DNA of 24,371 bases from Clostridia bacterium (GTDB taxonomy: Bacteria > Bacillota > Clostridia > Christensenellales > Aristaeellaceae), in assembly GCA_045599485.1 (NCBI GenBank), contig JAZRWA010000081.1, positions 1 to 24,371 of the forward strand. The letters run 5' to 3'. The position numbers and the translations under genes were made by a program. Of this stretch, positions 4,267-24,371 are shown piece after piece. Positions within the stretch are counted from its first letter, which is position 1. Each line of letters begins with the position of its first letter. The notes beneath the pieces were generated by a model that searched no databases, had not been told where the DNA came from, and saw only the letters and a program-made list of their open reading frames with translations.

Positions 4267-7982
<3,716 letters not shown>

Positions 7983-8001
7983 AACACACCTCCGAACCGC
8001 T

Positions 8002-9105
8002 CTATAACAGATGCGAAATGCAATCCCGGTCCGCCTCCTCGGGGGAGAAGGTGATCAGGTAAACGCGCACATTGGGCCCCATGCGGCGGATGTCGCGGAC
8101 GGCATCGCTGAGCAGGGCACCAAGGCGTGTGGTAATGATGATGACGGCGCCGACCGATACGGCGGCACGGGCTTCCATGAGCAGTACCCGTCCGAAATCC
8201 TGCGGGGAGGAAAAGGTAAGGTGGGCAAGCAGGGTGCTCAGCCCTTCGGTGCTGCCCGAGGGGGCGGCGCGGAACTCGGCCACGTGCTCATCATAAAAGG
8301 GCATGCGCACGGGCGATTGATGGGACAGCTGGATCTCCGCGGCGGACAGCGCCGTCTCGGTCAGCACATCGCGCAAACACAGCGCGCTCTCGCCCTCTGC
8401 CGCGGGGGCGGAGCAGTCGGTCAGGATGAGGGTGCCGGGCGGGGCCGGCGTTTCAAAGCTGCGCACGATGAGCTCGCCGCGGCAGGCGCTCAGCTTCCAG
8501 TGGATGCGCTTGAGGGGGTCGCCGCTGCGCCAGGCGCGGGTGCTGTCGGGGTAGGAGGCATCCTCGGCGGCGGTGAGCCCGCGGGCGGAACCGTCGTCAC
8601 TGCCGGCATATTCCAGGTTCATGGCTTCAAAGGGGCGGGGCAGCACCAGCATTTCTCCGCTTGCGGCCGCAAGGCGGACACGGCAGCGGAACAGGTGCAA
8701 GGGGTCGCTGCAGGCGGCGGAAAGGATCGACAGGCGGCGGCAGCCGACATGGTCGCCGGGCAGGTCGATGGTCAGCTCGGGGCGGCGGGCAGAGCGGCAG
8801 ACAAAGGCGTGCAGAAAGCGCTGCTCCCCGAAGCGGCAATCCAGCGCCCAGCTCATGGGCGTCAGGTAGGAATGGTGATAAAAGCGCACTGCCGGCGAAA
8901 AGCTGCCGCCGCGGAGGACGCGCTGTTCGGCAGGATCGACCTCGCACCGCAGCGTCAGGCGCAGCAGCAGCAGACCCAGTCCGTTGTACAAAAGCGTCAG
9001 CACGGCAAAAACGGCCGCGATATAAAAGAATCGCGCGCCGGAGGCCAGCCCGAACAAAAGTGACATCAGGCCGGTCAGCAGGAAGAAAAAGCCGCGGGCC
9101 GTCAT
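8002..9105 (-). CDS. DUF58-family protein (MoxR-operon partner)
   Basis: 367 aa with two N-terminal TM helices and ...DSTRAWRSGDPLKRIHWKLSA..., typical of DUF58. ATG 9105 overlaps the MoxR TGA (ATGA). It ends at TAG 8002-8004. If TAG is read, it ends at TGA 7966-7968. Confidence 0.75.
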   Translation of the reverse strand: MTARGFFFLLTGLMSLLFGLASGARFFYIAAVFAVLTLLYNGLGLLLLRLTLRCEVDPAEQRVLRGGSFSPAVRFYHHSYLTPMSWALDCRFGEQRFLHAFVCRSARRPELTIDLPGDHVGCRRLSILSAACSDPLHLFRCRVRLAAASGEMLVLPRPFEAMNLEYAGSDDGSARGLTAAEDASYPDSTRAWRSGDPLKRIHWKLSACRGELIVRSFETPAPPGTLILTDCSAPAAEGESALCLRDVLTETALSAAEIQLSHQSPVRMPFYDEHVAEFRAAPSGSTEGLSTLLAHLTFSSPQDFGRVLLMEARAAVSVGAVIIITTRLGALLSDAVRDIRRMGPNVRVYLITFSPEEADRDCISHLL

Positions 9106-10055
9106 TTGAGGCGCATGGGGACGGGCACGGAGGAAAGCAGGGCGGACAGGATGCCGTCGGCGGTCTGCCCCTTCATGCGGGCTTCGGGCGACAGCACCAG
9201 ACGGTGCGCCAGCACCGGCACCGCCATGAGCTTGACATCCTCGGGCAGCACATAATCGCGCCCCGAGAGCAGGGCACAGCCCTGCGAGGCACGCAGCAGC
9301 GCGATGGAGCCGCGGGGCGAGGCGCCCAGCGTCAGCAGGGGATGGCTGCGGGTGGCGGCGGACAGCTGCGCCACATAGGCGCGGATCTACGGCGCGGTGT
9401 AGACATCGCCCACGGCCTGCTGCATGGACAGCACATCCTCGGCGGTGCAGACGGGCTGCAGCGCGCCGAGCGGCACACTGCGCCCGGTGTAGCGCTCCAG
9501 AATGTCCATCTCCTCTTCCAGCGTGGGGTAACCCATGCTGATGCGCAGAAAGAAACGGTCCATCTGCGCCTCGGGCAGGGGGTAGGTGCCGACAAAATCA
9601 ACGGGGTTCTGCGTGGCCAGCACCATAAAGGGCGCGGGCAGGGGGTGCGTGACGCCGTCCACCGTCACCTGACGCTCCTCCATCACCTCCAGCAGGCTGG
9701 ACTGTGTTTTGGGCGAGGTACGGTTGATCTCATCCGCCAGCACGATCTGGCTCATGACGGCACCAGGGCGGAATTCCATCTGCCCCGTGGTCAGCGACGG
9801 CATGGTAAAGCCCGTGATGTCGCTGGGCATCACGTCGGGTGTAAACTGAATGCGCTTGAACGAACAGGAAAGCGAACGCGCCAGCGCGGCCACCATGGTG
9901 GTCTTGCCCACACCGGGCACATCCTCGATCAGCACATGACCGCGGCAGATGAGGGCGATGAGCGCCAGATGGATGGCCTCATCCTTGCCGACGATGACGC
10001 GGCCGATGTTTTTGGAAAGGGCGGAAACCAGGGTCAGAAGGCTGTCTTTCAGCAT
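9102..10055 (-). CDS. MoxR-family AAA+ ATPase carrying one in-frame TAG at 9387-9389
   Basis: Start placed at ATG 10055 (MLKDSL...), with AAGGAG 6 nt upstream and downstream of the promoter at 10092-10120. Walker A is EDVPGVGKT and Walker B is VLADEINR. The frame continues VGDVYTAP-TAG-IRAYVAQLSAATRSHPLLTLGASPRG...GRDYVLPEDVK..HRL, the conserved MoxR lid. 317 codons. Stop is TGA. Confidence 0.85.
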
Positions 10056-10091
10056 GGGAAACTCCTTTGACTTTGGGAGAATATCCATCAT

Positions 10092-10120
10092 ATTATACCC
10101 AATAAACGGCGTGAACGCAA
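10092..10120 (-). promoter_or_regulatory. Sigma-70-type promoter of the moxR-DUF58-transglutaminase operon
   Basis: On the minus strand: TTGCGT (10120-10115), 17-nt spacer, TATAAT (10097-10092). Confidence 0.6.
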
Positions 10121-10186
10121 CGAAGGCGGCAATTGTTTACATTCATCTGTATGCCTTTGGACCGTCCCTCCACAGTATTTGGTGTA

Positions 10187-10215
10187 GTGACAACGGACGG
10201 TCTTCATGCTATAAT
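10187..10215 (+). promoter_or_regulatory. Sigma-70-type promoter of the FAD-protein gene
   Basis: GTGACA at 10187-10192, 17-nt spacer, TGC-extended TATAAT at 10210-10215. Confidence 0.6.
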
Positions 10216-10241
10216 ATTATGGTATAAAGGGAGGTTTGTCC

Positions 10242-11834: not shown

Positions 11835-11851
11835 AAAAAGGAGGAAAGACC

Positions 11852-13420
11852 ATGCAGAATAACCCGCAGGAAAACCGTTATACCAAAAAAGGCTACGTGG
11901 AGCTGACCTCCTCTTATTCCGCCGCGCCGCGGCAGCCGCAGCGCCCCGCACAAAATAATCCGTACCAACAGCCGGTACAGAACAATCCATATCAGCAGCC
12001 TGCGCAGGGCAACCCGTATCAGCAGTCTGCGCAGAACAATCCGTATCAGCAGCCTGCGCAGGGCAATCCGTACCAACAGCCGGTACAGAACAACTCCTAT
12101 CAGCAGCCGGTACAGCCGCAGCCGCCGGAAGAGCCGGAGGACAGCGAATACCGTCAGGAATACTATCAGGCGCAAAAGCCCGCGCCCTTCAAGGCGCAGA
12201 ACGCCTATCAGGCCCCGAGGCCGAAGGGGCACGGTGCCTTCAACGTGATCCTGATCATACTGATCATTTTGCTGGTGCTGGCCGGCGGCATGGCGGTGTT
12301 CAGCCGTTATGGCGGCACCATCGACAACAAGCAGACCAGCGGCATCATCAATTCCAGCCTGCGCACCAGCTATACAGGCGACGCCGTCATTGTGCGCAAC
12401 GAGACGCTCTTTACGCAGGAGAACATTTCCCGCATTGAGTTTGGCGTCCGCGAAGGCGGTCAGGTCAAGCGCGGTGATACCGTTTGCACGGTGTACACCT
12501 CGGGCGTCAGCAAGACCGATATCAGCAACCTGGCCACCTACCGCACGCAGGTGGAAAGCTACATGAAAACGCTTCTGGCCTCCAGCAATGCGGAGACCGA
12601 TCAGGAGATGCGGTACCACAACAACACCGTGCTGCAGCTGGCGCAGGATATCCAGACCGCCGTACACCGCGGCGGCGGCAACCTCGGCAATCTGGAAAGC
12701 CGCCTCAACAGCGCCGTATCCGAGCGTGCCTATTACATCAAGCAGAAGTTTGTGGATGACCAGAAGCTGGCCAGGCTGTATGATGAGGCCAAAACCACCG
12801 AGCAGAAGGTGGAAACGTGGACCAAGTCCTTCGGCGCGACCGATGTGGGCGTGGTCTCCTTCTACACCGATTATTTTGAGCGCGCCCTCAACCTGAACAC
12901 CTATGAGAGCTTTTCTCCCGCCGAGGTGCGCTCCATGTACAACGGCATCCTGCCCGCTTCGGTCAACTTTGCCCGCAACGAGGTGCCTGTTTACCGTCTG
13001 GTGAGGGATGGCAGCTATGTGGTGCTGATGCTGTGCGACGACCTGACCTGGAACCCCACCGTGGGCTCCACCTATGAGCTGACCATTGAAAGCTTTTCCA
13101 ACCGCAGCGTGGCGGCGACGGTGGAATCGGTCTCCCTGTCCGACAAAGACCTGCTGGTGCGCCTGCGCATCAGCGGCAGCGTGAGCGACATCCTGTATGT
13201 GCGCTCCTGCCATGTGCAGCTGACCGAGATCATTGCCAGCATTGCCGTGCCCGCCGGCGCCATCACCACCTATAACGGCGAGATCGGTGTGGTCGTCATT
13301 CAGGCGGACGGCGAGTATTTCCTGCCCGTGACCATCATCAGTCAGGACAGCCAGACGGCGTACATCCTGCCGCAGATCGACAATATCCTGACGCAGAACT
13401 CCACCCTGCGCCTGTTCTGA
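11852..13420 (+). CDS. Membrane-anchored protein with an N-terminal Q/N/P/Y nonapeptide repeat and a HlyD/membrane-fusion-like body
   Basis: ATG 11852 lies 7 nt after GGAGG. It has a repeat region, a TM helix (AFNVILIILIILLVLAGGMAVF), then a lipoyl-like hairpin motif (GGQVKRGDTVCTVY) and a coiled-coil-like stretch. The functional call is tentative. Stop is TGA. Confidence 0.5.
   Translation: MQNNPQENRYTKKGYVELTSSYSAAPRQPQRPAQNNPYQQPVQNNPYQQPAQGNPYQQSAQNNPYQQPAQGNPYQQPVQNNSYQQPVQPQPPEEPEDSEYRQEYYQAQKPAPFKAQNAYQAPRPKGHGAFNVILIILIILLVLAGGMAVFSRYGGTIDNKQTSGIINSSLRTSYTGDAVIVRNETLFTQENISRIEFGVREGGQVKRGDTVCTVYTSGVSKTDISNLATYRTQVESYMKTLLASSNAETDQEMRYHNNTVLQLAQDIQTAVHRGGGNLGNLESRLNSAVSERAYYIKQKFVDDQKLARLYDEAKTTEQKVETWTKSFGATDVGVVSFYTDYFERALNLNTYESFSPAEVRSMYNGILPASVNFARNEVPVYRLVRDGSYVVLMLCDDLTWNPTVGSTYELTIESFSNRSVAATVESVSLSDKDLLVRLRISGSVSDILYVRSCHVQLTEIIASIAVPAGAITTYNGEIGVVVIQADGEYFLPVTIISQDSQTAYILPQIDNILTQNSTLRLF
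11951..12112 (+). repeat. Six tandem 27-bp coding repeats
   Basis: Units start at 11951, 11978, 12005, 12032, 12059 and 12086. Each encodes Q(N/G)N(P/S)YQQ(P/S)(V/A). Confidence 0.95.
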
Positions 13421-13425
13421 CGGGG

Positions 13426-13454
13426 TTGCAATCCTTTGCCGCAGCGGGTATAAT
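13426..13454 (+). promoter_or_regulatory. Sigma-70-type promoter upstream of sepF
   Basis: TTGCAA at 13426-13431, 17-nt spacer, TATAAT at 13449-13454. Confidence 0.6.
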
Positions 13455-13513
13455 GTTGAATGACCGGGGTCGCTTTTCCCGGTGTTTCACGCGTCTTTTT
13501 TCAAGGAGGAAGC

Positions 13514-14323
13514 ATGGCGTTTCGTGATGTGTTTTCCAGTGTAAAAAACTGGTTCAGCCCCAATAATACTTTTTTCAACGGTCAGAGCGAGCCGGAAAAC
13601 GATTACGGCTCCTACCGTCAGGGCGCGCCCGCCCCGGCACCGCGGGAGGCGGAGCCCGCCCCCAAGCCCGCTCCGCAGCCGGCGCAGCCCGAGGCGGCGT
13701 GGACGCCGACCTATCAGACGGGCAATTATGACCCGCGGCAGAATGTGACCACGCCGCGTCCCGAGGGCGCGAAGACCTTTTTTGAGCAGGGCATGCAGCA
13801 GCCGGCTCCCCAGCCCGTGCCGCCCGTGCAGGAGGAAAACGGACGCGTCCCCAATGTGTGCGTCTTCAACACCTACAACCTGCAGGCTTGCCGCAACGCC
13901 ATTGAGACCATCCGAAACGGGGATATCGTGGTGGCGGTGATGGATAACCTGGCCGACCCCAACGAGCTGCGCCGCTATGTGGATATGCTCAACGGCGCCG
14001 CCTATACGCTGGAAAGCTCCATGACGCGCCTGTCCGGGCGCAGCGGGGTGTATATCATCACCCCTCCCGGTGTGCACATCTATACCGATGATGCCACCAG
14101 CCGTGTCAACGGGCAGCAGCCCGCCGCGCAGAGCGCTTATGCCGCGCCGCAGACCGGTACCTTCCGCGCAAGCTATCCGCAGCCGCAGTACGGCGGCTAT
14201 TATCAGTCGGTCTCGCAGGCGGCCTACACTGCGCCGCAGCAGCCGGCTGCCCCGCAGATGACGATGCAGGGCCCCTCCCGGGGCTATTCGCCGGACCATA
14301 ACGGCGATTATTACCACTATTAA
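13514..14323 (+). CDS. sepF: SepF-family cell-division protein with a long P/Q-rich linker
   Basis: ATG 13514 follows AAGGAGG. The N-terminal amphipathic MAFRDVFSSVKNWF and the C-terminal domain align to the SepF/DUF552 core. That domain reads NVCVFNTYNLQACRNAIETIRNGDIVVAVMDNL..ELRRYVDMLNGAAYTLESSMTRLSGRSGVYIITPPGVHI. Stop is TAA. Confidence 0.8.
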   Translation: MAFRDVFSSVKNWFSPNNTFFNGQSEPENDYGSYRQGAPAPAPREAEPAPKPAPQPAQPEAAWTPTYQTGNYDPRQNVTTPRPEGAKTFFEQGMQQPAPQPVPPVQEENGRVPNVCVFNTYNLQACRNAIETIRNGDIVVAVMDNLADPNELRRYVDMLNGAAYTLESSMTRLSGRSGVYIITPPGVHIYTDDATSRVNGQQPAAQSAYAAPQTGTFRASYPQPQYGGYYQSVSQAAYTAPQQPAAPQMTMQGPSRGYSPDHNGDYYHY

Positions 14324-14347
14324 GCGACTCAAGGAGGAACAGGTCCC

Positions 14348-14929
14348 ATGGCTGCGAACATTACCGTCCGCATGATCGAAGACAAGGAGTTTACCGAGCG
14401 CTTCCGGGCGTATGATAAAGAAGAGGTCAACCAGTTTCTGGATGATATCTGCGATACTATGATGGCCATGCAGACGACCATCAACAACCTGCAGCAGCAG
14501 GTGAACGAGCTCAGCGGCGGCAGCAGTACCTGGGAGGCCGAAAAGGCGCAGCTGGAGCAGGCGCTGGCCGAGGCGCGGGCCGAAGCGAGCAAGGCTCGCG
14601 CGGCCGCCGTGCAGCAGCCGCCCGTGGTGGTCACCGCGCCCTCTTATTCCGAGTATTCCGAAAGCGCGCGCCGCATGATGGAAAAAACGCAGAAGGCCTG
14701 TGATGAGCTGCTGCAGGAAGCGCGTGAGGAGGCGGAAAACATCCGCCGCAGCGCGGCTTCGGTGACGGCCGTCTCCGGGGATAACAGCGCGCTGATGGCG
14801 GAAAGGGACGATCTGAAGCACGAGCTGGAGGACCTGCGTTCCGCCGCCGCTGCGTACCGCGCCCGCGCGCTGCAGCTGATGGAGGATCAGCGCACCGCCA
14901 TGGACAACTGCGGTCTGTTTGAATTTTGA
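14348..14929 (+). CDS. divIVA: DivIVA-domain protein
   Basis: The N-terminus ITVRMIEDKEFTERFRAYDKEEVNQFLDDI matches the DivIVA lipid-binding domain, followed by coiled coil. AAGGAGG lies upstream. Stop is TGA. Confidence 0.85.
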   Translation: MAANITVRMIEDKEFTERFRAYDKEEVNQFLDDICDTMMAMQTTINNLQQQVNELSGGSSTWEAEKAQLEQALAEARAEASKARAAAVQQPPVVVTAPSYSEYSESARRMMEKTQKACDELLQEAREEAENIRRSAASVTAVSGDNSALMAERDDLKHELEDLRSAAAAYRARALQLMEDQRTAMDNCGLFEF

Positions 14930-14939
14930 AAATTTTGAA

Positions 14940-14978
14940 GGCGGCGTAAGGACGGTGTTGTCCCGCGCCGCTTTTTTG
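14940..14978 (+). terminator. Rho-independent terminator after divIVA
   Basis: GCGGCG (14941-14946) pairs with CGCCGC (14966-14971), with an inner GGAC..GTCC stem, followed by TTTTTT (14972-14977). Confidence 0.65.
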
Positions 14979-15000
14979 TACGTCGGAAAGGAGGGCTTGC

Positions 15001-15837
15001 ATGCCTGCTGAAACCACGGTGCCCGTTTCCATTGCCGAGGATGTGCGGCTGGCGGCGGCGACGCTCAATCATTTTTATCAGAGCCTGCCTAATATTTTGT
15101 ATCATCTGGCCCTGTCGGGCGTGATCATTGTGCTGGGGCTGCTGCTGTTGAAGCTGATGCGGCGGCTGATCAACAAAAGCTATCGCCGCAAGGTGCAGGA
15201 GCGCAACTCCAGAGAGGCGGAAACCTTCCGTTCGCTCATCAGCAGCGTGGTCAGCTATCTGTTTTATTTTCTCATCGCGCTGACGGTGCTGCACGTGATG
15301 GGCGTGGATGTGTCCTCCATTCTGGCGGTTGCCGGAATCGGCACGGTCGCCATCGGCTTTGGCGCGCAGGCGCTGGTGAAAGACATCATCAGCGGCATGT
15401 TCCTGTGGCTGGAGGGCAATGTGGCGGTGGGCGATGTCATTACCGCCGCCGGCTGCAGCGGCGTGGTGGTCAGGGTATCGCTGCGCACCACCACCATCCG
15501 CAGCGCGGATGGCTGCTGCTGCGTGGTGCCCAACGGGGATATCCGAACGGTCATCTGCCGCTCCCGGGACATGGTCAAGTCACAGGTCAATGTGACGCTG
15601 GCACATGGGCAGGATATGGAAAAGGCGCTGGCCGTCCTGCGGGAGGAATGCGCTTTGGTGGGCGAGCAGCTGCACCTGAAGGACGCGCCGAAGGTGGTGG
15701 GCTGCATTGCCAACGACGCGCGCTGTGTGACCATCCGCTGTGAGTGCGACAGCAAGCCGTAGGATGACTGGCGGGTCGAGCGGGAGCTGCGCGAGCGGCT
15801 GTTTGAGCGGCTGTACCGCGAGGGCTTCAAGGCGTAA
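15001..15837 (+). CDS. MscS-family mechanosensitive channel carrying one in-frame TAG at 15760-15762
   Basis: AGGAGG lies 6 nt upstream. GIGTVAIGFGAQALVKDIISGMFLWLEGNVAVGDVI...LRTTTIRSADG..VPNGDI is the MscS core. After ..CECDSKP-TAG the frame continues DDWRVERELRERLFERLYREGFKA, typical of the MscS C-terminal helix, to TAA 15835-15837. Confidence 0.8.
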
Positions 15838-15921
15838 CGGAGACGAAGACGATGAGGTTTTTGGGAATCCCCCTTTTTGAAGTCCCAAAGGGCGGTTCCC
15901 AAGCCCTCCGCGAAAAAGCAG
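15835..15921 (+). repeat. Hairpin-plus-tail repeat, copy 3 (starts at the MscS TAA)
   Basis: TTGGGAATCCCCCTTTTTGAAGTCCCAAAGGGCGGTTCCCAA (15861-15902) plus GCCCTCCGCGAAAAAGCAG, near-identical to copy 1. Confidence 0.85.
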
Positions 15922-16291
15922 ATCAAAAAGTACTTACAATTTTGCTTTGATGTCAGTATCAGGAATCCCGGAACGTATGTTGTGATATTATCATGAAAAA
16001 CGGTAAGTTAAATCCGCAAGAAGTTTGAATGTGATGGATAATGATATGTTTGATGCGAAACAAATTGAATTTTTGCATGAAATCGGGTTATAGATAGATA
16101 ATGACAAACTAACCGATGACGATTGTATTTGTATTTAGGATGCAGTTTCGTAGTATCTTCAAAAATATGGCTTTGATGAAGGATATAACATCAATGAAAT
16201 GGGTGTCATGTGTGAGTCAATTTTAGATGTGATATCTGAAATCGACGAATTAAAATGATTAAGGCAAAGGATTAATGAAGTAAAAAAATCA
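15922..16291. other. AT-rich island (foreign-looking insert)
   Basis: Direct count gives 17/60 G+C for 16021-16080 and 19/60 for 16081-16140, against flanks above 60%. It is bounded by repeat copies 3 and 4. Confidence 0.8.
16034..16258 (+). pseudogene. 74-codon acidic ORF with three in-frame TAG codons (pseudogene under the standard code; intact if TAG is sense)
   Basis: One frame reads MDNDMFDAKQIEFLHEIGL-TAG-IDNDKLTDDDCICI-TAG-DAVS-TAG-YLQKYGFDEGYNINEMGVMCESILDVISEIDELK-TGA. TAGs are at 16091, 16136 and 16151. There is no in-frame TAA or TGA despite about 30% GC. No clear RBS. Confidence 0.5.
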
Positions 16292-16372
16292 GCCCTTTCT
16301 CGGAGGGGTGCAGGGGAACCATGCTTTCCGGCTTCGGAAAGCGTGGTTCCCCTGCATAAAAAAACCGGAGGT
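16292..16372 (-). repeat. Hairpin-plus-tail repeat, copy 4 (reverse orientation)
   Basis: Reverse-orientation tail GCCCTTTCTCGGAGGGG (16292-16308) and stem TGCAGGGGAACCA...TGGTTCCCCTGCA (16309-16356). The GGAGG RBS of the next gene lies in the element's spacer. Confidence 0.85.
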
Positions 16373-16378
16373 ATCCTG

Positions 16379-17002
16379 ATGCGTGAGCTGACGGAAAAAG
16401 AGAAGAAAAGAGCCGCGAAGGTCGCGGCGAAACAGGCGGATATGGAACGCGCGGGCTGGAAGGCGCAGAATGTGACGATCGGCGTGGTGCGCGCCAACGT
16501 GTACGCGCTGCTGTGGCTCCTTCCTTTTGCGGGGCTTTTTATCGCGCTGTTTGTGCTGATGGGGCACACGTACGACATTGAAACGGAAAACATTGTAAGC
16601 TTGCTGCTGTTGCCTGCGGCGATGATCGCCGCGATTTTTGTACACGAGGGTCTGCATGGACTGACATGGGGGCTGTTTGCAAAAGAGCACTTCAAGAGCA
16701 TTGAATTTGGCTTTATCAAGGAGATGGCAACGCCCTATTGCAGCTGCACCGAGCCGCTCGGGCGCGGGGCATACCTGCTGGGCGCGTTCATGCCCTGCCT
16801 GCTGCTGGGGTTGGTGCCCTGCGCGGCGGCGGTGTTTACGGGGCAGGTGTTTGTGCTGGCGTTTGGGCTGATCATGATCGGCGGCGCGGGCGGCGACCTG
16901 ACCATCATGCTCAGGATGCTGCTTTTCAGAGAAAACAAACGCGAGGTGCTCTACCTCGATCACCCGACGGAGTGCGGCTTCATTGCGCTGACGAGGGAAT
17001 AA
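16379..17002 (+). CDS. DUF3267-like membrane protein with an HExxH motif (putative zincin peptidase)
   Basis: ATG 16379 lies 7 nt after GGAGG. There are several TM helices and a VHEGLHG (HExxH) motif. Stop is TAA 17000-17002. Confidence 0.7.
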   Translation: MRELTEKEKKRAAKVAAKQADMERAGWKAQNVTIGVVRANVYALLWLLPFAGLFIALFVLMGHTYDIETENIVSLLLLPAAMIAAIFVHEGLHGLTWGLFAKEHFKSIEFGFIKEMATPYCSCTEPLGRGAYLLGAFMPCLLLGLVPCAAAVFTGQVFVLAFGLIMIGGAGGDLTIMLRMLLFRENKREVLYLDHPTECGFIALTRE

Positions 17003-17079
17003 CGAGAGGATGTTGGGGCGACCACTCTTTCCGAAGCCGGAAAGCATGGTCGCCCCAAACCCCACCCGAAAAAGGGCAG
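17000..17079 (+). repeat. Hairpin-plus-tail repeat, copy 5 (starts at the DUF3267 TAA)
   Basis: TAACGAGAGGATG, stem TTGGGGCGACCA..CTTTCCGaagcCGGAAAG..TGGTCGCCCCAA (17013-17058), tail ACCCCACCCGAAAAAGGGCAG, then a T-run. Confidence 0.85.
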
Positions 17080-17092
17080 ACTTTTTTTAAAA

Positions 17093-17164
17093 GGGAGAGA
17101 GGCACGCTTTGCGATGCCGAAAAGCGTCCCTCTCCCCCTTAACCCCCTGCTCCGAGAAAAGGCA
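17093..17164 (+). repeat. Hairpin-plus-tail repeat, copy 6
   Basis: Stem GGGAGAGAGGCACGCTTT...AAAGCGTCCCTCTCCC (17093-17136) with the tail ...CCCCCTGCTCCGAGAAAAGGCA. Confidence 0.75.
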
Positions 17165-17180
17165 TTTTTTCAGACATAAG

Positions 17181-17228
17181 AACACCCTTGCAATGATGGA
17201 AGGTGACCTTCATCAAGGCAAGGGTGTT
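17181..17228. repeat. B-element hairpin, copy 2 (inverted relative to 4108-4159)
   Basis: AACACCCTTGC-aatgatggaaggtgaccttcatcaag-GCAAGGGTGTT. The reverse complement of the 4110-4157 copy matches arm for arm and over most of the loop. Confidence 0.8.
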
Positions 17229-17266
17229 GCATTTTATATATTTATGATTGCTTTTTCCCGGAAGGT

Positions 17267-17321
17267 TTGGAAATCCTGCTTTTTGGCACAAAAAGCGTGG
17301 TTTCCAAGAACCCTCCATCCG
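17267..17321 (+). repeat. Hairpin-plus-tail repeat, copy 7 (diverged)
   Basis: TTGGAAATCCTGCTTTTTGgcaCAAAAAGCGTGGTTTCCAA (17267-17307) plus the tail GAACCCTCCATCCG, ending 3 nt from the DUF362 stop. Confidence 0.7.
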
Positions 17322-17324
17322 TTG

Positions 17325-18407
17325 TCAGTGCGTATACGCCCAGTCCTCGAGCGCCTCGATGATCTTTTCGGCGGTCGGCGGGCAGCCCTTGGCGTACATC
17401 TCGGCGCCGAGGCAGCAGTTGCCCACGCCGAAGCCGTCCAGCGTTTGCCCTTTGAAGCCCTGACCGATGCGGATGTGCAGGTTTTTGCCCATGCCGCTGG
17501 AATAGAGCGCGCGGGTCAGGTTGGCAAAGCAGGCGGAGCAGGCCTGATTCTGCTCCACATTGCGGGTGATGCGCGCCACAGCGCCCGTGGGGCGGGCCGC
17601 GGTCTGCACCGCGTCAGAGGGCGCGTTGAGGCACACGATGTCATCCTCCTTCACCCTGGTGCTGCCGCCGCCCCACTGCTCGCACAGGCCGATGTAGGGC
17701 ACCTCAGAGAGCGAAAGCCCCATCAGCTGCGCGCCGTAGGCATCCAGCTGCACCGGGTCGGTGCCGATGTACATGCGGTTGGTCTGGACGGGGTTGCCGC
17801 CTTCTTCAAAGTCGAGGTCGCCGCAAATGCTGTCCACAATGGTGAGGCGCGGCTTCAGCGCGGCGCCGAGGGCGGCAATGGGCTTTTGCAGACCGAGGGC
17901 GTGGAAATGGCGCTTTTCACGGTCGGGCAGGCAGCCCTTGAGGTTTTTGAGCGCGCAGGTCATGATGGTCTGACCGTGTCCCTTCAAGACGGGCAGGTCG
18001 ACCAGCAGGCCCGCGTTCAGTGCGCGGTCGCAGATGGCGATGGGACCGATGGCGGTGTTGACGTTGGTGGTCTTGTCGCGCTTGAGGTCGTAGAAGGGCA
18101 CGCGGTACTTGGTGCACACGCGGTCATAGCCCGCGGTGCGCATGGCGTTCATGGTCTCATCGCCCACCCAGCTGCCTTCAATGACGCTGATATCCTTGAC
18201 ACCGTGATCCTGAAAATATTCGATGGCGCCGCTCAAAACGCCGGGGTGCGTGGTGGCACCCGTCTCGGGACGGCCCGCGATGACCAGGTTGGGCTTGAGG
18301 GCGACGGAGCCGCCATCGGGCACCAGCTCGATGGCGTTGATGGCCTCCAGCAGCCGGATGGTCATGGTGTGGGCATCGGTGCCGTATATTTGAAAGATCT
18401 TGCTCAT
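17325..18407 (-). CDS. DUF362-domain protein
   Basis: 360 aa. ...VALKPNLV..., ...LKGHGQTIMTCALKNLKGC... and a C-terminal Cys cluster match DUF362-family architecture. Stop is TGA. Confidence 0.7.
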   Translation of the reverse strand: MSKIFQIYGTDAHTMTIRLLEAINAIELVPDGGSVALKPNLVIAGRPETGATTHPGVLSGAIEYFQDHGVKDISVIEGSWVGDETMNAMRTAGYDRVCTKYRVPFYDLKRDKTTNVNTAIGPIAICDRALNAGLLVDLPVLKGHGQTIMTCALKNLKGCLPDREKRHFHALGLQKPIAALGAALKPRLTIVDSICGDLDFEEGGNPVQTNRMYIGTDPVQLDAYGAQLMGLSLSEVPYIGLCEQWGGGSTRVKEDDIVCLNAPSDAVQTAARPTGAVARITRNVEQNQACSACFANLTRALYSSGMGKNLHIRIGQGFKGQTLDGFGVGNCCLGAEMYAKGCPPTAEKIIEALEDWAYTH

Positions 18408-18534
18408 TTTTGTGATTTCCTCCGAAAAAATGATGGTTTACAGACCCATTATAACAGAAAACTTATCTATTCGCGATAACAATTTGGAGCATTCCTTTCA
18501 AGAATGAAAAGATGTGATGATTGTATAACAGAAT

Positions 18535-18572
18535 GGCCTTTTCTCGGGTGGGGTTCGGGGAGGGGATGCTTT
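18535..18572 (-). repeat. Truncated hairpin-plus-tail repeat, copy 8
   Basis: GGCCTTTTCTCGGGTGGGGTTCGGGGAGGGGATGCTTT parallels the reverse complement of copy 5 (TGCCCTTTTTCGGGTGGGGTTTGGGGCGACCATGCTTT). The second hairpin arm is missing. Confidence 0.6.
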
Positions 18573-18599
18573 GACAAACATGGATGACTTTGGTATGAT
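18571..18599 (+). promoter_or_regulatory. Sigma-70-type promoter of the GNAT gene
   Basis: TTGACA at 18571-18576, 17-nt spacer, TATGAT at 18594-18599. The -35 sits at the truncation point of repeat copy 8. Confidence 0.6.
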
Positions 18600-18619
18600 A
18601 GTTGATGGAGGCGTAAAAA

Positions 18620-19168
18620 ATGGAACTGAAACAGATGCGCAAGGCTGACGCGGATCTGAAGACGGTCCGGGCCATCTTTCTGGAGGCCTTCCCGAAGATC
18701 GAGCGGCCCCCCTTCAAAGTGCTGACACGCAGGCTGGGTACGGGTCTGGCGGAGCTGTGGGGCGTGTATGACGCGGGAAAATTGAAGGGCTTTGCCGAGG
18801 TCATCTGCAGTGATACGGCGGTGTACCTGTTCTTTTTGGCCATGCACAAGGATTGCCGCGGTCAGGGCTGCGGCGGTTTTACGGTGCGCGAGCTGATAAA
18901 AAAATACGCCGGAAAGAAATTCTTTCTGGCGTTGGAAAGCCTGACCGAGGAAGGCGCGGAAAACATGGAAGAGCGCATCCGCCGGCACGGCTTTTATGCA
19001 AGGCAGGGATTGCATGACCTGCCGGTGCAGCTGTATGAGGGCGGCGTGACCTTTGACGCCATGGGCGTGGGGGAGGCGCCGACCAAAGAGGAATACGAGG
19101 GCATGATGCGGCGGTTTCTGGGCGCTTACGGGCTGTTCATCCGCTGCAGACGGATCGAAAAGAAATGA
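18620..19168 (+). CDS. GNAT-family N-acetyltransferase
   Basis: 182 aa with GGAGG 8 nt upstream. ...LAMHKDCRGQGCGGFTV... is the acetyl-CoA-binding motif A (R/Q-x-x-G-x-G/A). Stop is TGA. Confidence 0.75.
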   Translation: MELKQMRKADADLKTVRAIFLEAFPKIERPPFKVLTRRLGTGLAELWGVYDAGKLKGFAEVICSDTAVYLFFLAMHKDCRGQGCGGFTVRELIKKYAGKKFFLALESLTEEGAENMEERIRRHGFYARQGLHDLPVQLYEGGVTFDAMGVGEAPTKEEYEGMMRRFLGAYGLFIRCRRIEKK

Positions 19169-19489
19169 TCAGTTGAGCAGGGCGGGATTGATGCGGTAGC
19201 CGCGGCGATAGACCGTCTGAATGATATCATTGCCGAGCTTCATGCGCAGACGGCGCACGTGCACATCAATGGTGCGGGTCTCGTAAGCCTGACAGCTGCC
19301 CCAGGCGGTCAAAAGCAGCTCCCGGCGGCTGAGGGCGGGGCTGTCCTTGCGCGCGCTGTGGCGGAACAGCTCTTCGAATAACAGATATTCCTGGTTGGTC
19401 AGCTGCACTTCCTGACCCGAAAGGGATACGCGCCGTGTGACGGGGTCGAGCCGGACGGCGCTTTTTTTGATCCTGCAAGGTTGAAGCAT
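19169..19489 (-). CDS. Stand-alone OmpR/PhoB-type winged-helix DNA-binding protein (no receiver domain)
   Basis: ATG 19489 lies 8 nt after GGAGG. ...VQLTNQEYLLFEELF....SRRELL..WG......TRTIDVHVRRLRMKLG...IQTVYRRGYRI is a Trans_reg_C domain. About 106 aa. Stop is TGA. Confidence 0.75.
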   Translation of the reverse strand: MLQPCRIKKSAVRLDPVTRRVSLSGQEVQLTNQEYLLFEELFRHSARKDSPALSRRELLLTAWGSCQAYETRTIDVHVRRLRMKLGNDIIQTVYRRGYRINPALLN

Positions 19490-19568
19490 TGGGATCACCT
19501 CCACCCATATAACGCGGGCGGAGGATCTTTTGTTGCAGAGATGTAAAACTGTTCACATTTTGTTAACA

Positions 19569-19594
19569 AATAAAAAGAGCAGCCGGGGCTGCTC
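19569..19594 (-). terminator. Rho-independent terminator after the MreB-like gene
   Basis: On the minus strand: GAGCAGCC..GGCTGCTC stem followed by TTTTTATTT. Confidence 0.65.
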
Positions 19595-19609
19595 CGAAAA
19601 AAGACCGGG

Positions 19610-20641
19610 TCAGGGGCGGAAACGGTTGGTGGCCAGATAACGGCCAAACTCGCGCGGGTTTTCCATGGTGGCGGCGCAGCCCATGGCCACGCAGTCATGC
19701 GGGTTGGCGGCCACGGTGCACTTGACCTTGAGGGAGGCGGCAATGGCATCGGACAGGCCGTACAGCATGGCACCGCCGCCGGTGAGGGTGATGCCGCTTT
19801 TGTCAAAAATGTCGTTGCCCAGCGCGGCCGGGGTGCGCTCCAGCACACCGCGGATCTTTTCGATCAGGTCGGTAAGCGGCTCGTCCATGGCCTCAAAAAC
19901 CTCATCCGAGGAGACGCGCAGCGATTTTGGCAGACCGCTGATGAGGCTGCGGCCGGCGACATCGGCATACAGCGATTCACGCAGGGGAATGGCGGAGCCG
20001 ATATCCATCTTGAGCTTTTCGGCGGTAAGCTCGCCGATGAGGAAGTTGTGCTTGCGGCGCAGATAGCGGATGATGGCCTCGTCAAACTGATCGCCACCCA
20101 GCTTGGGATTGTCGCTGACGGTGACATGATCGTTGGAAAGCACGGCAATGTCGGTCATGCCGGCGCCGATATCCACCACCATGGAGCCGCTGACCGAGCG
20201 GACATCAATGCCCGCGCCGAGGGCGGCGGCCAGGGGACGATCGAGCGGCTGCACGCGCTTGCAGCCCGAATCGTACAGGATGGCGGCGATGTGGCGGCGT
20301 TCTTCCTCATTGATGCCGCTGGGCATGGAAATAACGGCGTTCGGGCGCTTGAACCAGTGCTTGCCCACCGTTTGCTGCACAAAATAGCTGAGCAGATCCT
20401 TGGCGGCCTGGATATCGCTGACCACGCCTTCGCGCAGCGGGCGCACTGCCACCAGGTGGGAGGGTACACGGCCGATCATGCGGTAGGCGTCGCGGCCCCA
20501 GTAACGGATGCACCGGGAGGCGGGCGCATCGGGCTCTTTGATGACGACCGACGCCTCGCGCAGCTTGATGCCGTCGCCGCAGGCGTAGATGATCAGCGAG
20601 GAAGTACCCAGATCGATGCCGATGTCTTCAACGGATGCCAT
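19610..20641 (-). CDS. MreB/Mbl-family actin-like protein
   Basis: 343 aa. DIGIDLGTSS, ...VISMPSGINEEERR.., ..MVVDIGAGMTDIAV.. and ..ITLTGGGA.. are actin-fold phosphate and adenosine motifs. Stop is TGA. Confidence 0.85.
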   Translation of the reverse strand: MASVEDIGIDLGTSSLIIYACGDGIKLREASVVIKEPDAPASRCIRYWGRDAYRMIGRVPSHLVAVRPLREGVVSDIQAAKDLLSYFVQQTVGKHWFKRPNAVISMPSGINEEERRHIAAILYDSGCKRVQPLDRPLAAALGAGIDVRSVSGSMVVDIGAGMTDIAVLSNDHVTVSDNPKLGGDQFDEAIIRYLRRKHNFLIGELTAEKLKMDIGSAIPLRESLYADVAGRSLISGLPKSLRVSSDEVFEAMDEPLTDLIEKIRGVLERTPAALGNDIFDKSGITLTGGGAMLYGLSDAIAASLKVKCTVAANPHDCVAMGCAATMENPREFGRYLATNRFRP

Positions 20642-20764
20642 GACTCAAAAAATCTCCTTTAATAACGGAATCCTGACACTGTAATTCGACACAGTGCGGC
20701 AAATTCCTGCCAAAATTGGGATATAATCCCCACAAAAAATATAAAATAAGCAAAAACTGACGCG

Positions 20765-22033
20765 TTAAACTCCACTTTCGTCCTGCATCCACAGGGTGCG
20801 GCGGCCTAAAACATCCACCGTCATGATGACGGGATCCCCACGCAGAATGGGCAGGCTGATGGTGGTTTGAAGCTATGGCGTCTGCTTGAGGCGCGCGGCG
20901 GAGGTGTAGACCTGAAAAACGCCGTCCCGGAGGTAGCCGGCGGACCACTGGTCCACCGCGTCGAGCGGGTGCCGGAGGCCGCCGGGCAGCAGCTTTTCGA
21001 TGAGCGCGCGGTCCTCCGCTCCCGGCAGGTAATCGGTCAGGGTGATGCTGTAATAGCCGATGCCGGGCAGCACCGAGGCCTCCATTTTTTCGGGGCGGTC
21101 GGAAAGGGGCGCACGCAGCGCCAGCCCTGTGCCGAGCAGGCGTTTGCGGCTGACCGAGATGGCGGCTTCCCCGCAGTCGATGCCCAGATAGCGGCAGCCG
21201 TTTTCGTGCGCGGCGATGAGCGTGGTGCCCGAGCCGCAGCACAGGTCGGCCACGAGGTCGCCGGGGCGGGTGCAGCAGCGGATGATGCGGTCCAGCAGCG
21301 CGCGGGGCTTTTGCGTATCATAGCCGGTGCGCTGGGGGTCCTTCTGCTGCAGGTGGCTGACATCCATCCACACGTCGTCGGGATAGACGGGCTCATCATC
21401 GTAATAGGTGTAGACCTTGCCGCCCACGCGGATGGTGCGGCAGGCGCGGCCGTTTTCGTCCACCGAGCGCTTCATGTGGTTTTCACGGTTTTCGCCGCGG
21501 GGGATGGGCACGCGGGTGATATCAAAAAACAGATTGCGGGATTTGGCGTAGAACAGGATGACGTCGTGCTTGCGGCTGAAATGCTTTTTGCTGCGGCCGC
21601 CGGACTGGTAGGCCCAGATGATCTCATTGATAAAGTTTTTTTCACCGAAGATCTCGTCGCACAGCAGGCGCGCGTAGGCGTTCATGCGGCTGTCCAGATG
21701 GAGGAAAAGGGCACCGGTATCGCTGAGAAGCAGCTTGGCCTGCTCCAGCAGGGCGCGCAGGAGCGTTAAAAATTCCTCCCGGCTGCTGCCGTGAAAATCG
21801 CCGAAGGCGGGCAGCGTCAGCACAGGGCTGCCTTTTTCCCAGCCCTCGCGGCCGCAGCGCATGCGGAAATGAAACTCCTCCCCGGTAAAGAAGGGGGGAT
21901 CGATATATACGCACTGCGCCTGCCCCTTCCACGGGGTCAGCGAAACAGCGGCGGCGTTGTCCATCAGCAGGATGCCGCCGGGGCCGTCGCTCATGTGCAG
22001 CTCTTTTTGACATTCGGTGCGGTGCCAGGCCAT
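20765..22033 (-). CDS. Beta-class (N6-adenine type, DPPF) DNA methyltransferase with a C-terminal extension, carrying one in-frame TAG at 20873-20875
   Basis: Motif IV is VYIDPPFF, followed by motif I DLCCGSGTTLIAAHENGCRYLGID (PF01555 order). After ..ARLKQTP-TAG the frame stays open for 35 GC-rich codons (LQTTISLPILRGDPVIMTVDVLGRRTLWMQDESGV) to TAA 20765-20767. That is exactly where composition drops to AT-rich intergenic DNA. Confidence 0.75.
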
Positions 22034-22039
22034 GGAATT

Positions 22040-22546
22040 TCAATCCCCCAGTTCACGGCGTAACGATTCAAAATAGGGTATCAGGGCATTCAGGTAGGCT
22101 TTGTTTTCGTCCGATTGGCACAGTACCCGGGCGGCCTCACGGGCGGCGTCGATAAAGGCGGGGTCCAGCGCGCGGGGGCCGTTTTCGGCCAGCGGACAGC
22201 AGGAGAAAGCCCTTGGATCCATGCGCAGGGCGATGCGGCCTTCCTCCTTGATGACAGGCGTCAGGGGAAAAAGACGGCAGGCCAGGGGACGGTCGTTGCG
22301 GTCACAGCGGCCGGAGCAGGTCAGCAGTGTCATGCCGGGCAGAACGCTGTCGTCGCGGCTCAGCGCAAAGCCTTCCGGCAAAACGCTGTACAGCGCTTCC
22401 TCACCGGGAAAGAGCAGCATGCCGCCCTGACCGTCCTCATCGGGCGCGCAGCAGGCGGCCCCGCAGACGCGGCCGCAATCGCTTTTGAGCGGGGTGATAT
22501 GCTGTAATAACGCCCTTGCGCGCAGCACCGCTTCCGTTGCCGTCAT
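22040..22546 (-). CDS. YkgJ-like cysteine-cluster protein (putative Zn/Fe-chelating domain)
   Basis: Start at ATG 22546 (MTATEAVL..) after GGAGG. Contains CGRVCGAACC plus later CSGRC and SCCP. Its TGA at 22040-22042 lies 6 nt from the methyltransferase ATG, so they are probably co-transcribed. Confidence 0.55.
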   Translation of the reverse strand: MTATEAVLRARALLQHITPLKSDCGRVCGAACCAPDEDGQGGMLLFPGEEALYSVLPEGFALSRDDSVLPGMTLLTCSGRCDRNDRPLACRLFPLTPVIKEEGRIALRMDPRAFSCCPLAENGPRALDPAFIDAAREAARVLCQSDENKAYLNALIPYFESLRRELGD

Positions 22547-22576
22547 GCCAAAACCTCCTGCATTATAAACGGGTAC

Positions 22577-22605
22577 AGTATAGCATAGTTTGGTATCGAA
22601 TGCAA
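22577..22605 (-). promoter_or_regulatory. Sigma-70-type promoter of the ykgJ-like/methyltransferase unit
   Basis: On the minus strand: TTGCAT (22605-22600), 17-nt spacer, TGC-extended TATACT (22582-22577). Confidence 0.55.
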
Positions 22606-22644
22606 CTTGACGGCCTTGGGGGGCCGTGACGGTGGCTGAAAGAG

Positions 22645-22677
22645 GCAAAAAAACAGCACGGTCATGAACCGTACTGC
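22645..22677 (-). terminator. Rho-independent terminator after the acetyltransferase gene
   Basis: On the minus strand: CAGTACGGT-tcatg-ACCGTGCTG stem followed by TTTTTTTG. Confidence 0.65.
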
Positions 22678-22686
22678 TTTGAACCG

Positions 22687-23307
22687 TTATTCGATGACAC
22701 GGTAGGAGCCGAGGATGTCGGGGCGGTTTTTGAGGCTGTCCGCCTCGGTGAGGGGGCGGATGACGCGGGCGGGCACGCCTGCGGCAAAGCTGTTTGCGGG
22801 AATGGAACGGGTGACCACGCTGCCCGCGCCGATGACGCAGCCATCGCCGATGGTGACGCCGGGACATACGGTCACGCCCGCGCCCAGCCAGCAGTCATTG
22901 CCGATGTGCACCTCCTCCGCCCAGCACAGGTGAGCATGGCTGCCATCGGGGGCCAGCAGCGCCCTGCGCTCCTCCTTGAGCATGGGGTGCAAAGGCGTCA
23001 CGATGGTCACATTGGGGCCGAAGTTGCAGTTCTCGCCGATAGTGACGGGGGCGTCATCCTGACAGGTGAAGTGGAAGTTGATAAAGGTGCCCTTTCCGAT
23101 GCGCGTATGGCTGCCGTAATGGAAGGTGATGGGGCCCTGCAAGTACACGCCTTCGCCCTTGAAGCCGAGCAGGGAGGCAAGGATGCTTTCCCTTTGCTCG
23201 GTCTCATCCTCATAGAGACGGTTATAATCCTGATTGAGGGCATGAGCCTTCTTTTTTTGTTCCTTGCGCCACGGCTCGGCGGGGTTGAACAGCTTTTCGG
23301 TTTGCAT
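22687..23307 (-). CDS. maa: Maltose/galactoside O-acetyltransferase (left-handed beta-helix)
   Basis: 206 aa with an N-terminal Mac domain and hexapeptide repeats (IGENCNFGPNVTI.., IGNDCWLGAGVTVCPGVTIGDGCVIGAGSVV). Stop is TAA. Confidence 0.8.
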   Translation of the reverse strand: MQTEKLFNPAEPWRKEQKKKAHALNQDYNRLYEDETEQRESILASLLGFKGEGVYLQGPITFHYGSHTRIGKGTFINFHFTCQDDAPVTIGENCNFGPNVTIVTPLHPMLKEERRALLAPDGSHAHLCWAEEVHIGNDCWLGAGVTVCPGVTIGDGCVIGAGSVVTRSIPANSFAAGVPARVIRPLTEADSLKNRPDILGSYRVIE

Positions 23308-23316
23308 GAAGTCACC

Positions 23317-23790
23317 TCAATAGCTTTCCGCGCGGCGCTGCCTGCGCAGATTGTCCCGCTTTTCGGCCTTTTCCCATTCCAGACGTTCGGCATCGGTCTG
23401 GGGGACCAGCTGCGGCACGGGCTTGGGGGTGTGGGTACCGTCCTCCACCGCGACCATGACCACATAGGCAGTGTTGATCAGCTCCTTGGGCACGCCTTTG
23501 TTTTCATGGTAGGTGTCGATGCGTACCTCCAGCGAGGTGCGGCCTGTGCGGGTGACATAGCCGTCGAGGGTGACCACATCGCTGACGATGGCGCTTTTTT
23601 GAAAGGTGATGTTGTCGATGGCGACCGTAAACACCTGCGAGTTGGTGTGGCGAAGCGCCACGATGCCGGCCAGCATATCGATCCAGCTGAGCAGGCGGCC
23701 GCCGAACAGGTTGCCCTGCGCGTTGGCATCGCCGGGCAGGATCAGATAGTGCTGGATGGTGCGGGAATCGGCTACAAGACGGGTCTCCAT
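23317..23790 (-). CDS. Acyl-CoA thioesterase (hotdog fold, YciA-like)
   Basis: ATG 23790 lies 8 nt after GGAGG. ..PGDANAQGNLFGGRLLSWIDMLAGIVA..TVAIDNITFQKS...TGRTSLEVRI.. Stop is TGA. Confidence 0.8.
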   Translation of the reverse strand: METRLVADSRTIQHYLILPGDANAQGNLFGGRLLSWIDMLAGIVALRHTNSQVFTVAIDNITFQKSAIVSDVVTLDGYVTRTGRTSLEVRIDTYHENKGVPKELINTAYVVMVAVEDGTHTPKPVPQLVPQTDAERLEWEKAEKRDNLRRQRRAESY

Positions 23791-23795
23791 GGGGG

Positions 23796-24368
23796 TCACC
23801 TCCGCTTTTTGTTCAGGATGGGGCCGGCCAGAGCGCCGACCAGACCGCCCAGCAGGTGCGCCAGCTGGGAGATGTTATCCGCCGTGAACAGGCCGTTGTA
23901 GATCTCCCGTCCCAGATACACCGCCGCCACCAGCAGCACGGTGATGGGCAGACCGCCATCCCGGACCGCGGCGTAGGAGCAGAGCAGGATCATCATAAAC
24001 ACCACGCCGCTGGCGCCCAGCAGCGCCGTGCCGGGCATAAACAGGATGTTGAACAAGCCGGTGATCAGCGCGGTAAAGGCCATCAGCAGCACAAGGCGCA
24101 CGCCGCCGTATTTTTCCTCCAGCATGGGACCCAGCAGCAGGATGTACAACAGGTTGTTGAACAGATGATCCCAGCTGCTGTGACCCATGATGTGGGTGAA
24201 GCAGCGGATGTATTGCAGGGGATCACCAAAGCCTGTGCGGTATACGGTGAAAAGCGAATGCGTGAAGGCACCGCCTGAAATGGTGTTGATGATCTGAATG
24301 AGCAGACACAGCGCGCAGAAGATCAGTATGACCGGCGCGTTCAGCGTCAGACGAAACTTTTTTTTCAT
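23796..24368 (-). CDS. Rhomboid-family intramembrane serine protease
   Basis: 190 aa with about 6 TM helices. H..GH...H.FNN, GASGVVF (GxSG) and HLLGGLVGAL (catalytic His). Its TGA overlaps the RBS region of the next gene. Confidence 0.8.
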   Translation of the reverse strand: MKKKFRLTLNAPVILIFCALCLLIQIINTISGGAFTHSLFTVYRTGFGDPLQYIRCFTHIMGHSSWDHLFNNLLYILLLGPMLEEKYGGVRLVLLMAFTALITGLFNILFMPGTALLGASGVVFMMILLCSYAAVRDGGLPITVLLVAAVYLGREIYNGLFTADNISQLAHLLGGLVGALAGPILNKKRR

Positions 24369-24371
24369 GTC

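Follow-up and report, generated by a model that had tools for sequence, protein, structure and literature searches.

The stretch of DNA considered here, hereafter the window, is a contig of 24,371 nucleotides from a Clostridia bacterium. Under the standard bacterial code, its gene for a DNA methyltransferase ends at a TAG codon (positions 20873-20875), and four other genes of the window are interrupted in the same manner. Comparison with relatives makes it probable that, in this organism and in its sister lineage, UAG is translated rather than used as a terminator, and that it is most likely read as glutamate. The lineage concerned, the window organism together with the Horse_feces223 group, comprises uncultured Clostridia known from gut samples of herbivores; among public genomes, the closest is the metagenome-assembled genome (MAG) Horse_feces223 (GCA_024404275.1). 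On balance, we lean towards a code of this lineage in which UAG would stand for glutamate, with UAA and UGA still used as stops. What is found corresponds to several of the usual marks of a codon reassignment: in-frame UAG codons in several unrelated conserved genes, a consistent residue in the corresponding columns of relatives, and a distribution restricted to one clade.

Five in-frame TAG codons in the window

All the open reading frames of the window that end in TAG under the standard code were listed and then re-read with TAG as a sense codon. The five frames obtained in this way all continue in frame as conserved coding sequence. These genes, and the features surrounding the methyltransferase TAG, are as follows:

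20765..22033, minus strand: full coding sequence of the methyltransferase with TAG as sense, 422 codons followed by the TAA stop 20765-20767
20873..20875, minus strand: in-frame TAG, codon 387 of the methyltransferase
20768..20872, minus strand: 35-codon tail of the methyltransferase, last three β-strands of the C-terminal domain, with conserved columns and signs of constraint
15001..15837, plus strand: MscS-type mechanosensitive channel gene, TAG 15760-15762, real stop TAA 15835-15837
9102..10055, minus strand: MoxR AAA+ ATPase gene, TAG 9387-9389, real stop TGA 9102-9104
7966..9105, minus strand: DUF58 gene, TAG 8002-8004, real stop TGA 7966-7968
5694..7982, minus strand: transglutaminase-like membrane protein gene, TAG 6525-6527, real stop TAA 5694-5696
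20642..20764, minus strand: AT-rich intergenic spacer (GC content 0.32-0.43) from the methyltransferase TAA to the start of the MreB-like gene (ATG 20641-20639)
19610-20641, minus strand: MreB-like gene, downstream of the methyltransferase across the AT-rich spacer

A preliminary description of this DNA had considered the methyltransferase alone. This one-gene view has to be widened, because the methyltransferase TAG is only one of five. With five in-frame TAGs, the cause is to be sought in how the organism decodes its messages rather than in a read-through or truncation of one gene. Read-through confined to the methyltransferase, or a recent nonsense mutation in it, was dropped as an explanation because the four other TAG-ended frames also continue as coding sequence.

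In the MscS gene, the match to MS_channel_3rd spans the TAG. The frame has 253 residues up to the TAG and 24 codons after it, as compared with 277-281 residues in the orthologues, and the tail retains W257, E260, R261, R264, L271 and E274. In the MoxR gene, whose orthologues have 317 residues, the AAA_lid_2 domain lies entirely past the TAG. In the transglutaminase-like protein, the Transglut_core match (2-108 of 108 positions) spans the TAG, which sits four codons ahead of the GYCTYFA cysteine motif. Past the DUF58 TAG, the window matches two sister strains (L086 and L088) in all 11 residues, up to a TGA common to the three.

With TAG read as sense, the 23 genes of the window all end in either TAA (10) or TGA (13). 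TAG then accounts for 5 of 7,396 codons (~0.07%), compared with 282 GAG codons, and 5 of the 23 genes are affected. The window has the content of an ordinary chromosome, with genes for an M18 aminopeptidase, phosphoglycerate mutase, glutamate dehydrogenase, SepF, DivIVA, MreB, MscS and MoxR.

In three of the five cases, the codon right before the TAG encodes proline: CCA TAG (20876-20878), CCG TAG (15757-15759) and CCG TAG (9390-9392). TAGs might be best tolerated where termination by release factors is poor. No excess of RNA folding, as sought for a signal resembling a pyrrolysine (PYLIS) or selenocysteine (SECIS) insertion sequence, was found downstream of any of the five.

As regards the arrangement of these genes, the DUF58 gene, ending at TGA 7966-7968, overlaps the transglutaminase start (ATG 7982-7980) by 17 nt, an arrangement also found in the sister contigs. 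The overlap between MoxR and DUF58 is 4 nt (9102-9105). The transglutaminase-like protein also contains a long low-complexity linker rich in proline, serine and glutamate (PSPSPS..., window ~5950-6150, minus strand). This linker, whose length differs between the window and a sister strain, precedes a C-terminal membrane segment and a DUF4129 domain.

The methyltransferase and its C-terminal tail

The methyltransferase ORF begins at an ATG at 22033 and runs on the minus strand to 20873, giving 386 residues (..SAARLKQTP) before the TAG. Past this codon, the same frame stays open for 35 codons, as LQTTISLPILRGDPVIMTVDVLGRRTLWMQDESGV, until the TAA at 20765-20767. The length of the open frame had been given correctly in the preliminary description; by itself it is weak evidence, as about 1 in 5 random frames would match it. 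The GC content of the tail at the three codon positions is 0.63/0.43/0.66, the last value agreeing with the earlier estimate of about two-thirds and lying below the 0.83 measured in the body of the gene. It had also been proposed that AT-rich DNA begins after 20765 and not after 20873. In 60-nt windows, GC content indeed falls from 0.55-0.62 to 0.32-0.38 only below ~20765, where the spacer starts.

It is homology, rather than the length of the open frame, that is decisive in considering the tail as real coding sequence. A search with the read-through product yielded thousands of relatives, the best 120 of which have 404-428 residues and cover 95-100% of the 422-residue query. About 80 methyltransferase orthologues, of 405-423 residues and covering 98-100% of the read-through product, all run through the tail; the sole entry of 386 residues is the window's own cluster. 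Relatives thus reach about 35 residues beyond the TAG column, with homologous DNA downstream, as had been anticipated, and orthologues ending at the TAG, which would have spoken for the shorter protein, were not seen. Five columns of the tail are invariant across 27 aligned sequences (P395, L397, G399, D407 and G410, in LPxLRG...DVLGxRTLW). The residue at the TAG column itself differs among orthologues (A, D, R, E, K, Q). Most likely, the enzyme is produced at a length of 422 residues, and the annotated protein of 386 residues would be an artefact of genetic code 11.

Judged by its motifs and its predicted fold, the protein is a β-class N6/N4 DNA methyltransferase. It matches PF01555 over residues 40-294 (E=5e-41, 141 bits for a cut-off of 26.7), and the motif DPPF (residues 45-48) precedes the S-adenosylmethionine (AdoMet) motif GSGT (267-270). 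In the 27 aligned sequences, D45, P46, P47 and G267, S268, G269, T270 are invariant. Modelled with AlphaFold2, the read-through protein reaches a predicted local distance difference test (pLDDT) score of 81 and a predicted template modelling score (pTM) of 0.82. It displays a confident C-terminal domain (residues ~300-418, pLDDT 90-96), to which the tail contributes three β-strands (391-395, 401-407 and 412-417, pLDDT >90). In this model, the 35-residue tail completes the predicted C-terminal module of the enzyme, putatively one for target recognition or DNA binding, in keeping with what had been suggested from the sequence. With Foldseek, the catalytic part retrieved M.BceJIV, CcrM, MboIIA and RsrI (E 1e-11 to 1e-14); the C-terminal domain (~300-418) was not specifically matched to that of CcrM or to any solved structure.

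Between the catalytic and AdoMet motifs, residues 143-154, 182-186 and 202-241 (window ~21311-21607) are modelled with pLDDT <50. This segment still holds many invariant residues (YYDD, DVW, QQKDPQRTGY), and by analogy with the target-recognition loops of CcrM-type enzymes it may fold only on DNA. The order of a Cys-rich 168-residue gene (no Pfam match), the methyltransferase and the MreB-like gene (window 19610-22546) is kept in most of 80 species. No restriction gene was seen beside the methyltransferase in the neighbourhoods of the window and of 79 other species (L007-L085). The gene context suggests a conserved orphan methyltransferase, not a component of a restriction-modification system.

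TAG codons in sister strains

Contigs of sister strains, at 85-94% nucleotide identity, cover positions 5329-24371 of the window almost completely. Proteins identical to those of the sister strains are present in the metagenome GCA_024500545.1. The codons that they carry in the columns of the window TAGs are as follows:

Methyltransferase TAG column: TAG in four contigs (L002-L005), CAG in one (L001)
MscS TAG column: TAG in L090-L092, GAG in L093 (third lineage)
MoxR TAG column: GAG in four sister contigs
DUF58 TAG column: GAA in two contigs (L086, L088)
Transglutaminase TAG column: GAG in L086

The TAGs of the methyltransferase and MscS genes are common to independent contigs of sister lineages that have diverged by 6-12% at the nucleotide level. 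Their occurrence in independent assemblies, from NCBI, ENA and Logan and made from different samples, indicates that these TAGs are real. A further in-frame TAG occurs in the sister contig L086, at residue 237 of the transglutaminase (L086 4724-4726), where the window has TCG (7275-7277). This arrangement suggests a change from GAG to TAG in the common ancestor, followed by a change from TAG to TCG in the line of the window. The turnover of TAG codons then comprises three window-specific sites, one sister-specific site (L086), two shared sites and one nested CAG allele.

The methyltransferase alleles of close relatives come from contigs of NCBI, ENA and Logan assemblies made from different samples. 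The cluster at 90% identity contains three distinct alleles of 386 residues and one of 422 residues (P0123), with glutamine at the TAG column. At the DNA level, this column is TAG in the window and L002-L005 (three distinct alleles) and CAG in L001. The CAG allele nests with L002-L005, the window being the most divergent sequence. Among the six related alleles, eight of the nine variable sites of the tail are at third codon positions; directly 3' of the TAA, substitutions occur at all three codon phases. This third-position bias means that the tail evolves as coding sequence in genomes that carry the TAG.

The ratio of non-synonymous to synonymous substitution rates (dN/dS) was also considered after each TAG. 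At the two shared sites it reflects time with the TAG in place, the counts being small, and amounts to 0.15 for the methyltransferase (against TAG-bearing sister alleles) and 0.40 for MscS. At the three window-specific sites it mostly reflects time before the TAG arose, which weakens its bearing on translation of UAG: it is 0.19-0.20 for MoxR, 0 for DUF58 (three synonymous and zero non-synonymous changes) and 0.24 over 272 codons for the transglutaminase, compared with 0.26 ahead of its TAG.

The sister strain L002 also has two insertions that are absent from the window. One of ~1.2 kb (L002 1816-3072 versus window 22616-22667) contains a Fic/DUF6788-like gene, and another of ~1.1 kb (L002 7080-8209 versus window 18476-18607) contains a gene for a small HTH_3 regulator.

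Restriction of in-frame TAGs to the lineage

The flanks around the methyltransferase in the 79 other species served as a comparison set. In the methyltransferase, the nearest species found are no more than 61-65% identical to the window. No in-frame TAG occurs in the aligned regions of 185 orthologues from these species (80 methyltransferases, 64 copies of the upstream gene and 41 of MreB), as compared with 5 of the 23 window genes (Fisher P = 1e-5). This orthologue-restricted scan replaced a first all-against-all scan of 80 related loci, which was swamped by spurious ORFs, antisense or out of frame, and by stretches of N translated as X. Two candidates of the first scan were set aside: that of L009, unconfirmed, lies antisense to the upstream gene, and that of L054 (~3962-3964, in the gene upstream of the methyltransferase of an uncultured Christensenella MAG) was not confirmed by the restricted scan.

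In the 79 related species, TAG ends 22 of 597 genes (3.7%), TGA and TAA accounting for ~48% each. Given this low frequency, the lack of TAG terminators in the window is weak evidence and was dropped from the argument.

Probable amino acid at UAG

The sense codons found in the nearest relatives at the five TAG columns are GAG, GAG, GAG, GAA and CAG. In MoxR, the column is glutamate in 16 of 16 aligned relatives. In MscS, it holds E, D or N, with glutamate in the closest sense relative. In the transglutaminase, both the sister and the nearest orthologues have glutamate, which is also the modal residue overall (27 of 73). The column of the TAG specific to L086 is also modally glutamate in orthologues. 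When column log-odds are summed over these six columns, glutamate reaches +13.8 bits, the next best residue being aspartate (-1.4 bits) and glutamine standing at -6.8 bits. With the codon usage of the window, GAG represents only 14-24% of one-step precursors of TAG, and four origins out of five from glutamate codons has a probability of ~0.005-0.013. Such an excess is expected if a change from GAG to TAG is synonymous.

A possible mechanism of reassignment

The decoder would be a glutamate-charged tRNA with the anticodon CUA. It could have arisen by a single C36-to-A change in a copy of tRNA-Glu(CUC). In Firmicutes lacking glutaminyl-tRNA synthetase, the non-discriminating glutamyl-tRNA synthetase already tolerates different bases at position 36. 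The lineage would also have lost or weakened its release factor 1 (RF1). Capture of the codon may have been eased because very few genes in the wider clade ended in TAG to begin with; its presence at only 3.7% of gene ends in relatives makes this precondition plausible. The reassignment appears to be at an early stage, with ~0.07% of TAG codons and with sites gained and lost between sister lineages.

Weighing of the alternatives

Several observations weigh against translation of UAG as glutamate, in addition to the age of the dN/dS values at the window-specific sites. With 3.7% of TAG ends in relatives, none among 23 genes would be expected ~40% of the time anyway. Random nonsense mutation, given the codon usage of the window, would produce TAG in 58-64% of cases, so that five TAGs out of five has a probability of ~0.07-0.11. 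The two molecular hallmarks of a reassignment would be a tRNA with the anticodon CUA and a change in prfA, the gene for RF1. The sequences compared, ~24 kb of this genome and 12 short sister contigs, contain no tRNA gene, nor does prfA lie within them. Proline before three of the five TAGs would have a probability of ~1e-3 by chance at ~5% proline, a calculation made post hoc, and termination could still compete at these sites. The assignment to glutamate rests on six columns only, from related, non-independent sequences; at one of them the closest methyltransferase allele has glutamine, and at another the window has serine. Finally, the Codetta screen of 2021 and the KACI screen of 2026 report no such bacterial code, although GCA_024404275.1 was already public. 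The one KACI supplementary file searched makes no mention of this genome.

Among the other explanations, the one to be taken most seriously, while still unlikely, is ambiguous decoding: an efficient amber suppressor tRNA would act together with a working RF1, yielding a mixture of full-length and truncated proteins, and the TAGs would be tolerated or mildly deleterious leaky stops. In E. coli, proline before a stop is a context of inefficient termination by release factors, and the position of three window TAGs right after a proline codon is consistent with this idea, though the pattern is post hoc and concerns five sites. The continued rarity of TAG relative to GAG and the differences in TAG positions between sister lineages would also suit such a young system. 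However, about one fifth of the genes are hit, including the region of the transglutaminase catalytic core and a position before the AAA+ lid, which would be costly under strong termination, and two TAGs persist over 6-12% of nucleotide divergence. A reading of UAG as glutamine, as in the TAG-recoded gut phages (code 15) and in usual near-cognate read-through, is improbable. Bacteria that make Gln-tRNA by transamidation could obtain a suppressor in one step, by a CUG to CUA mutation of tRNA-Gln. Moreover, the only closely related methyltransferase allele with a sense codon has CAG, one transition away from TAG. Yet this column is variable, with E or D in many orthologues, the nearest sense relatives have glutamate codons at four of the five window columns, MoxR has an unvarying glutamate, and the summed log-odds favour glutamate (+13.8 bits) and disfavour glutamine (-6.8 bits).

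It may also be imagined that the five genes were hit by independent nonsense mutations, perhaps through a G-to-T bias, and are truncated pseudogenes or shortened variants whose downstream parts have not yet decayed. In favour of this view, GAG and TAG differ by a G-to-T transversion, nonsense mutation in this codon usage yields TAG more often than any other stop, and three TAGs were found in the window strain alone. This explanation is nevertheless very improbable. It would require that 5 of 23 genes were knocked out without a frameshift or an interruption by TAA or TGA, and the DUF58 column is two steps away from GAA. Besides, the methyltransferase and MscS TAGs are shared between diverged lineages with tails that remain open, keep the same stop and change mostly at synonymous sites. 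In addition, no TAG is found in the orthologous genes of the 79 species, and dN/dS after the TAGs stays at 0-0.40. Pyrrolysine, inserted at UAG in particular genes or genome-wide as in some archaea, has very little to recommend it: UAG is its codon, and tools of code inference that do not model it would miss it, but none of the five genes encodes a methylamine methyltransferase, the columns are acidic (invariant glutamate in MoxR) and not lysine-like, and no stable structure follows the TAGs. The least credible explanation is an error of sequencing or assembly at the TAG positions. The window is a metagenome-derived contig, but the same TAGs recur on distinct haplotypes, in contigs that differ in sample, archive and assembler.

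Implications and comparison with known systems

If UAG is indeed read as glutamate, a free-living, GC-rich gut bacterium using UAG for an amino acid would extend the known natural codes by a new kind and offer a young example for watching codon capture, with TAG rare as a terminator and few sense TAGs that are turning over. A natural pair of suppressor tRNA and synthetase, possibly in an RF1-free background, would be of interest for amber-suppression engineering. Because TAG-recoded phages share the habitat, decoding of TAG by the host would bear on phage-host interactions. Under code 11, annotation of such genomes would wrongly render about one gene in five as truncated or split, and the errors would spread to protein databases. 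In the window, this concerns the methyltransferase, MscS, MoxR, DUF58 and transglutaminase genes.

The Codetta screen states that all known bacterial changes of stop codons involve UGA (PMC8629427). The KACI screen of 2.7 million assemblies recovered, in bacteria, changes of UGA and of sense codons only (doi 10.64898/2026.04.02.715157). No described bacterial reassignment of TAG was found in the literature searched, within which UAG read as glutamate would be the first reassignment of the amber codon in bacteria.

As for the methyltransferase itself, it shares with CcrM (PDB 6pbd) and M.BceJIV (8urk) the order of the motifs, PF01555, a similar catalytic fold and a C-terminal domain located past motif I.

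Among known codes, code 4 (UGA=Trp, Mycoplasmatales and others) and code 25 (UGA=Gly, Absconditabacteria/Gracilibacteria) likewise use a stop codon as sense throughout a lineage. As in the window, apparent stops occur inside conserved domains, and standard annotation truncates or splits genes. However, the codon is UGA in these cases and UAG in the window, whose genome is GC-rich (~60%) and not AT-rich or reduced. The TAG-recoded gut phages of code 15 (TAG=Gln; crAss-like, Lak) have in common with the window the codon, the animal gut habitat and the annotation symptoms; in contrast, the window is a chromosome with housekeeping genes, and its TAG columns point to glutamate and not to glutamine. 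The same amino acid as that proposed here is assigned to UAG in peritrich ciliates and Blastocrithidia (UAR=Glu, PMC12153298). Those codes are eukaryotic and nuclear, and UAA is usually changed as well, whereas TAA ends 10 of the 23 window genes. Finally, the archaeal code in which all TAGs are read as pyrrolysine (bioRxiv 10.1101/2024.09.30.615893) is another case of a prokaryote with TAG as a sense codon in many ordinary genes. It belongs to another domain of life and relies on pyrrolysine and a dedicated pyl system, whereas the columns in the window are glutamate-like.

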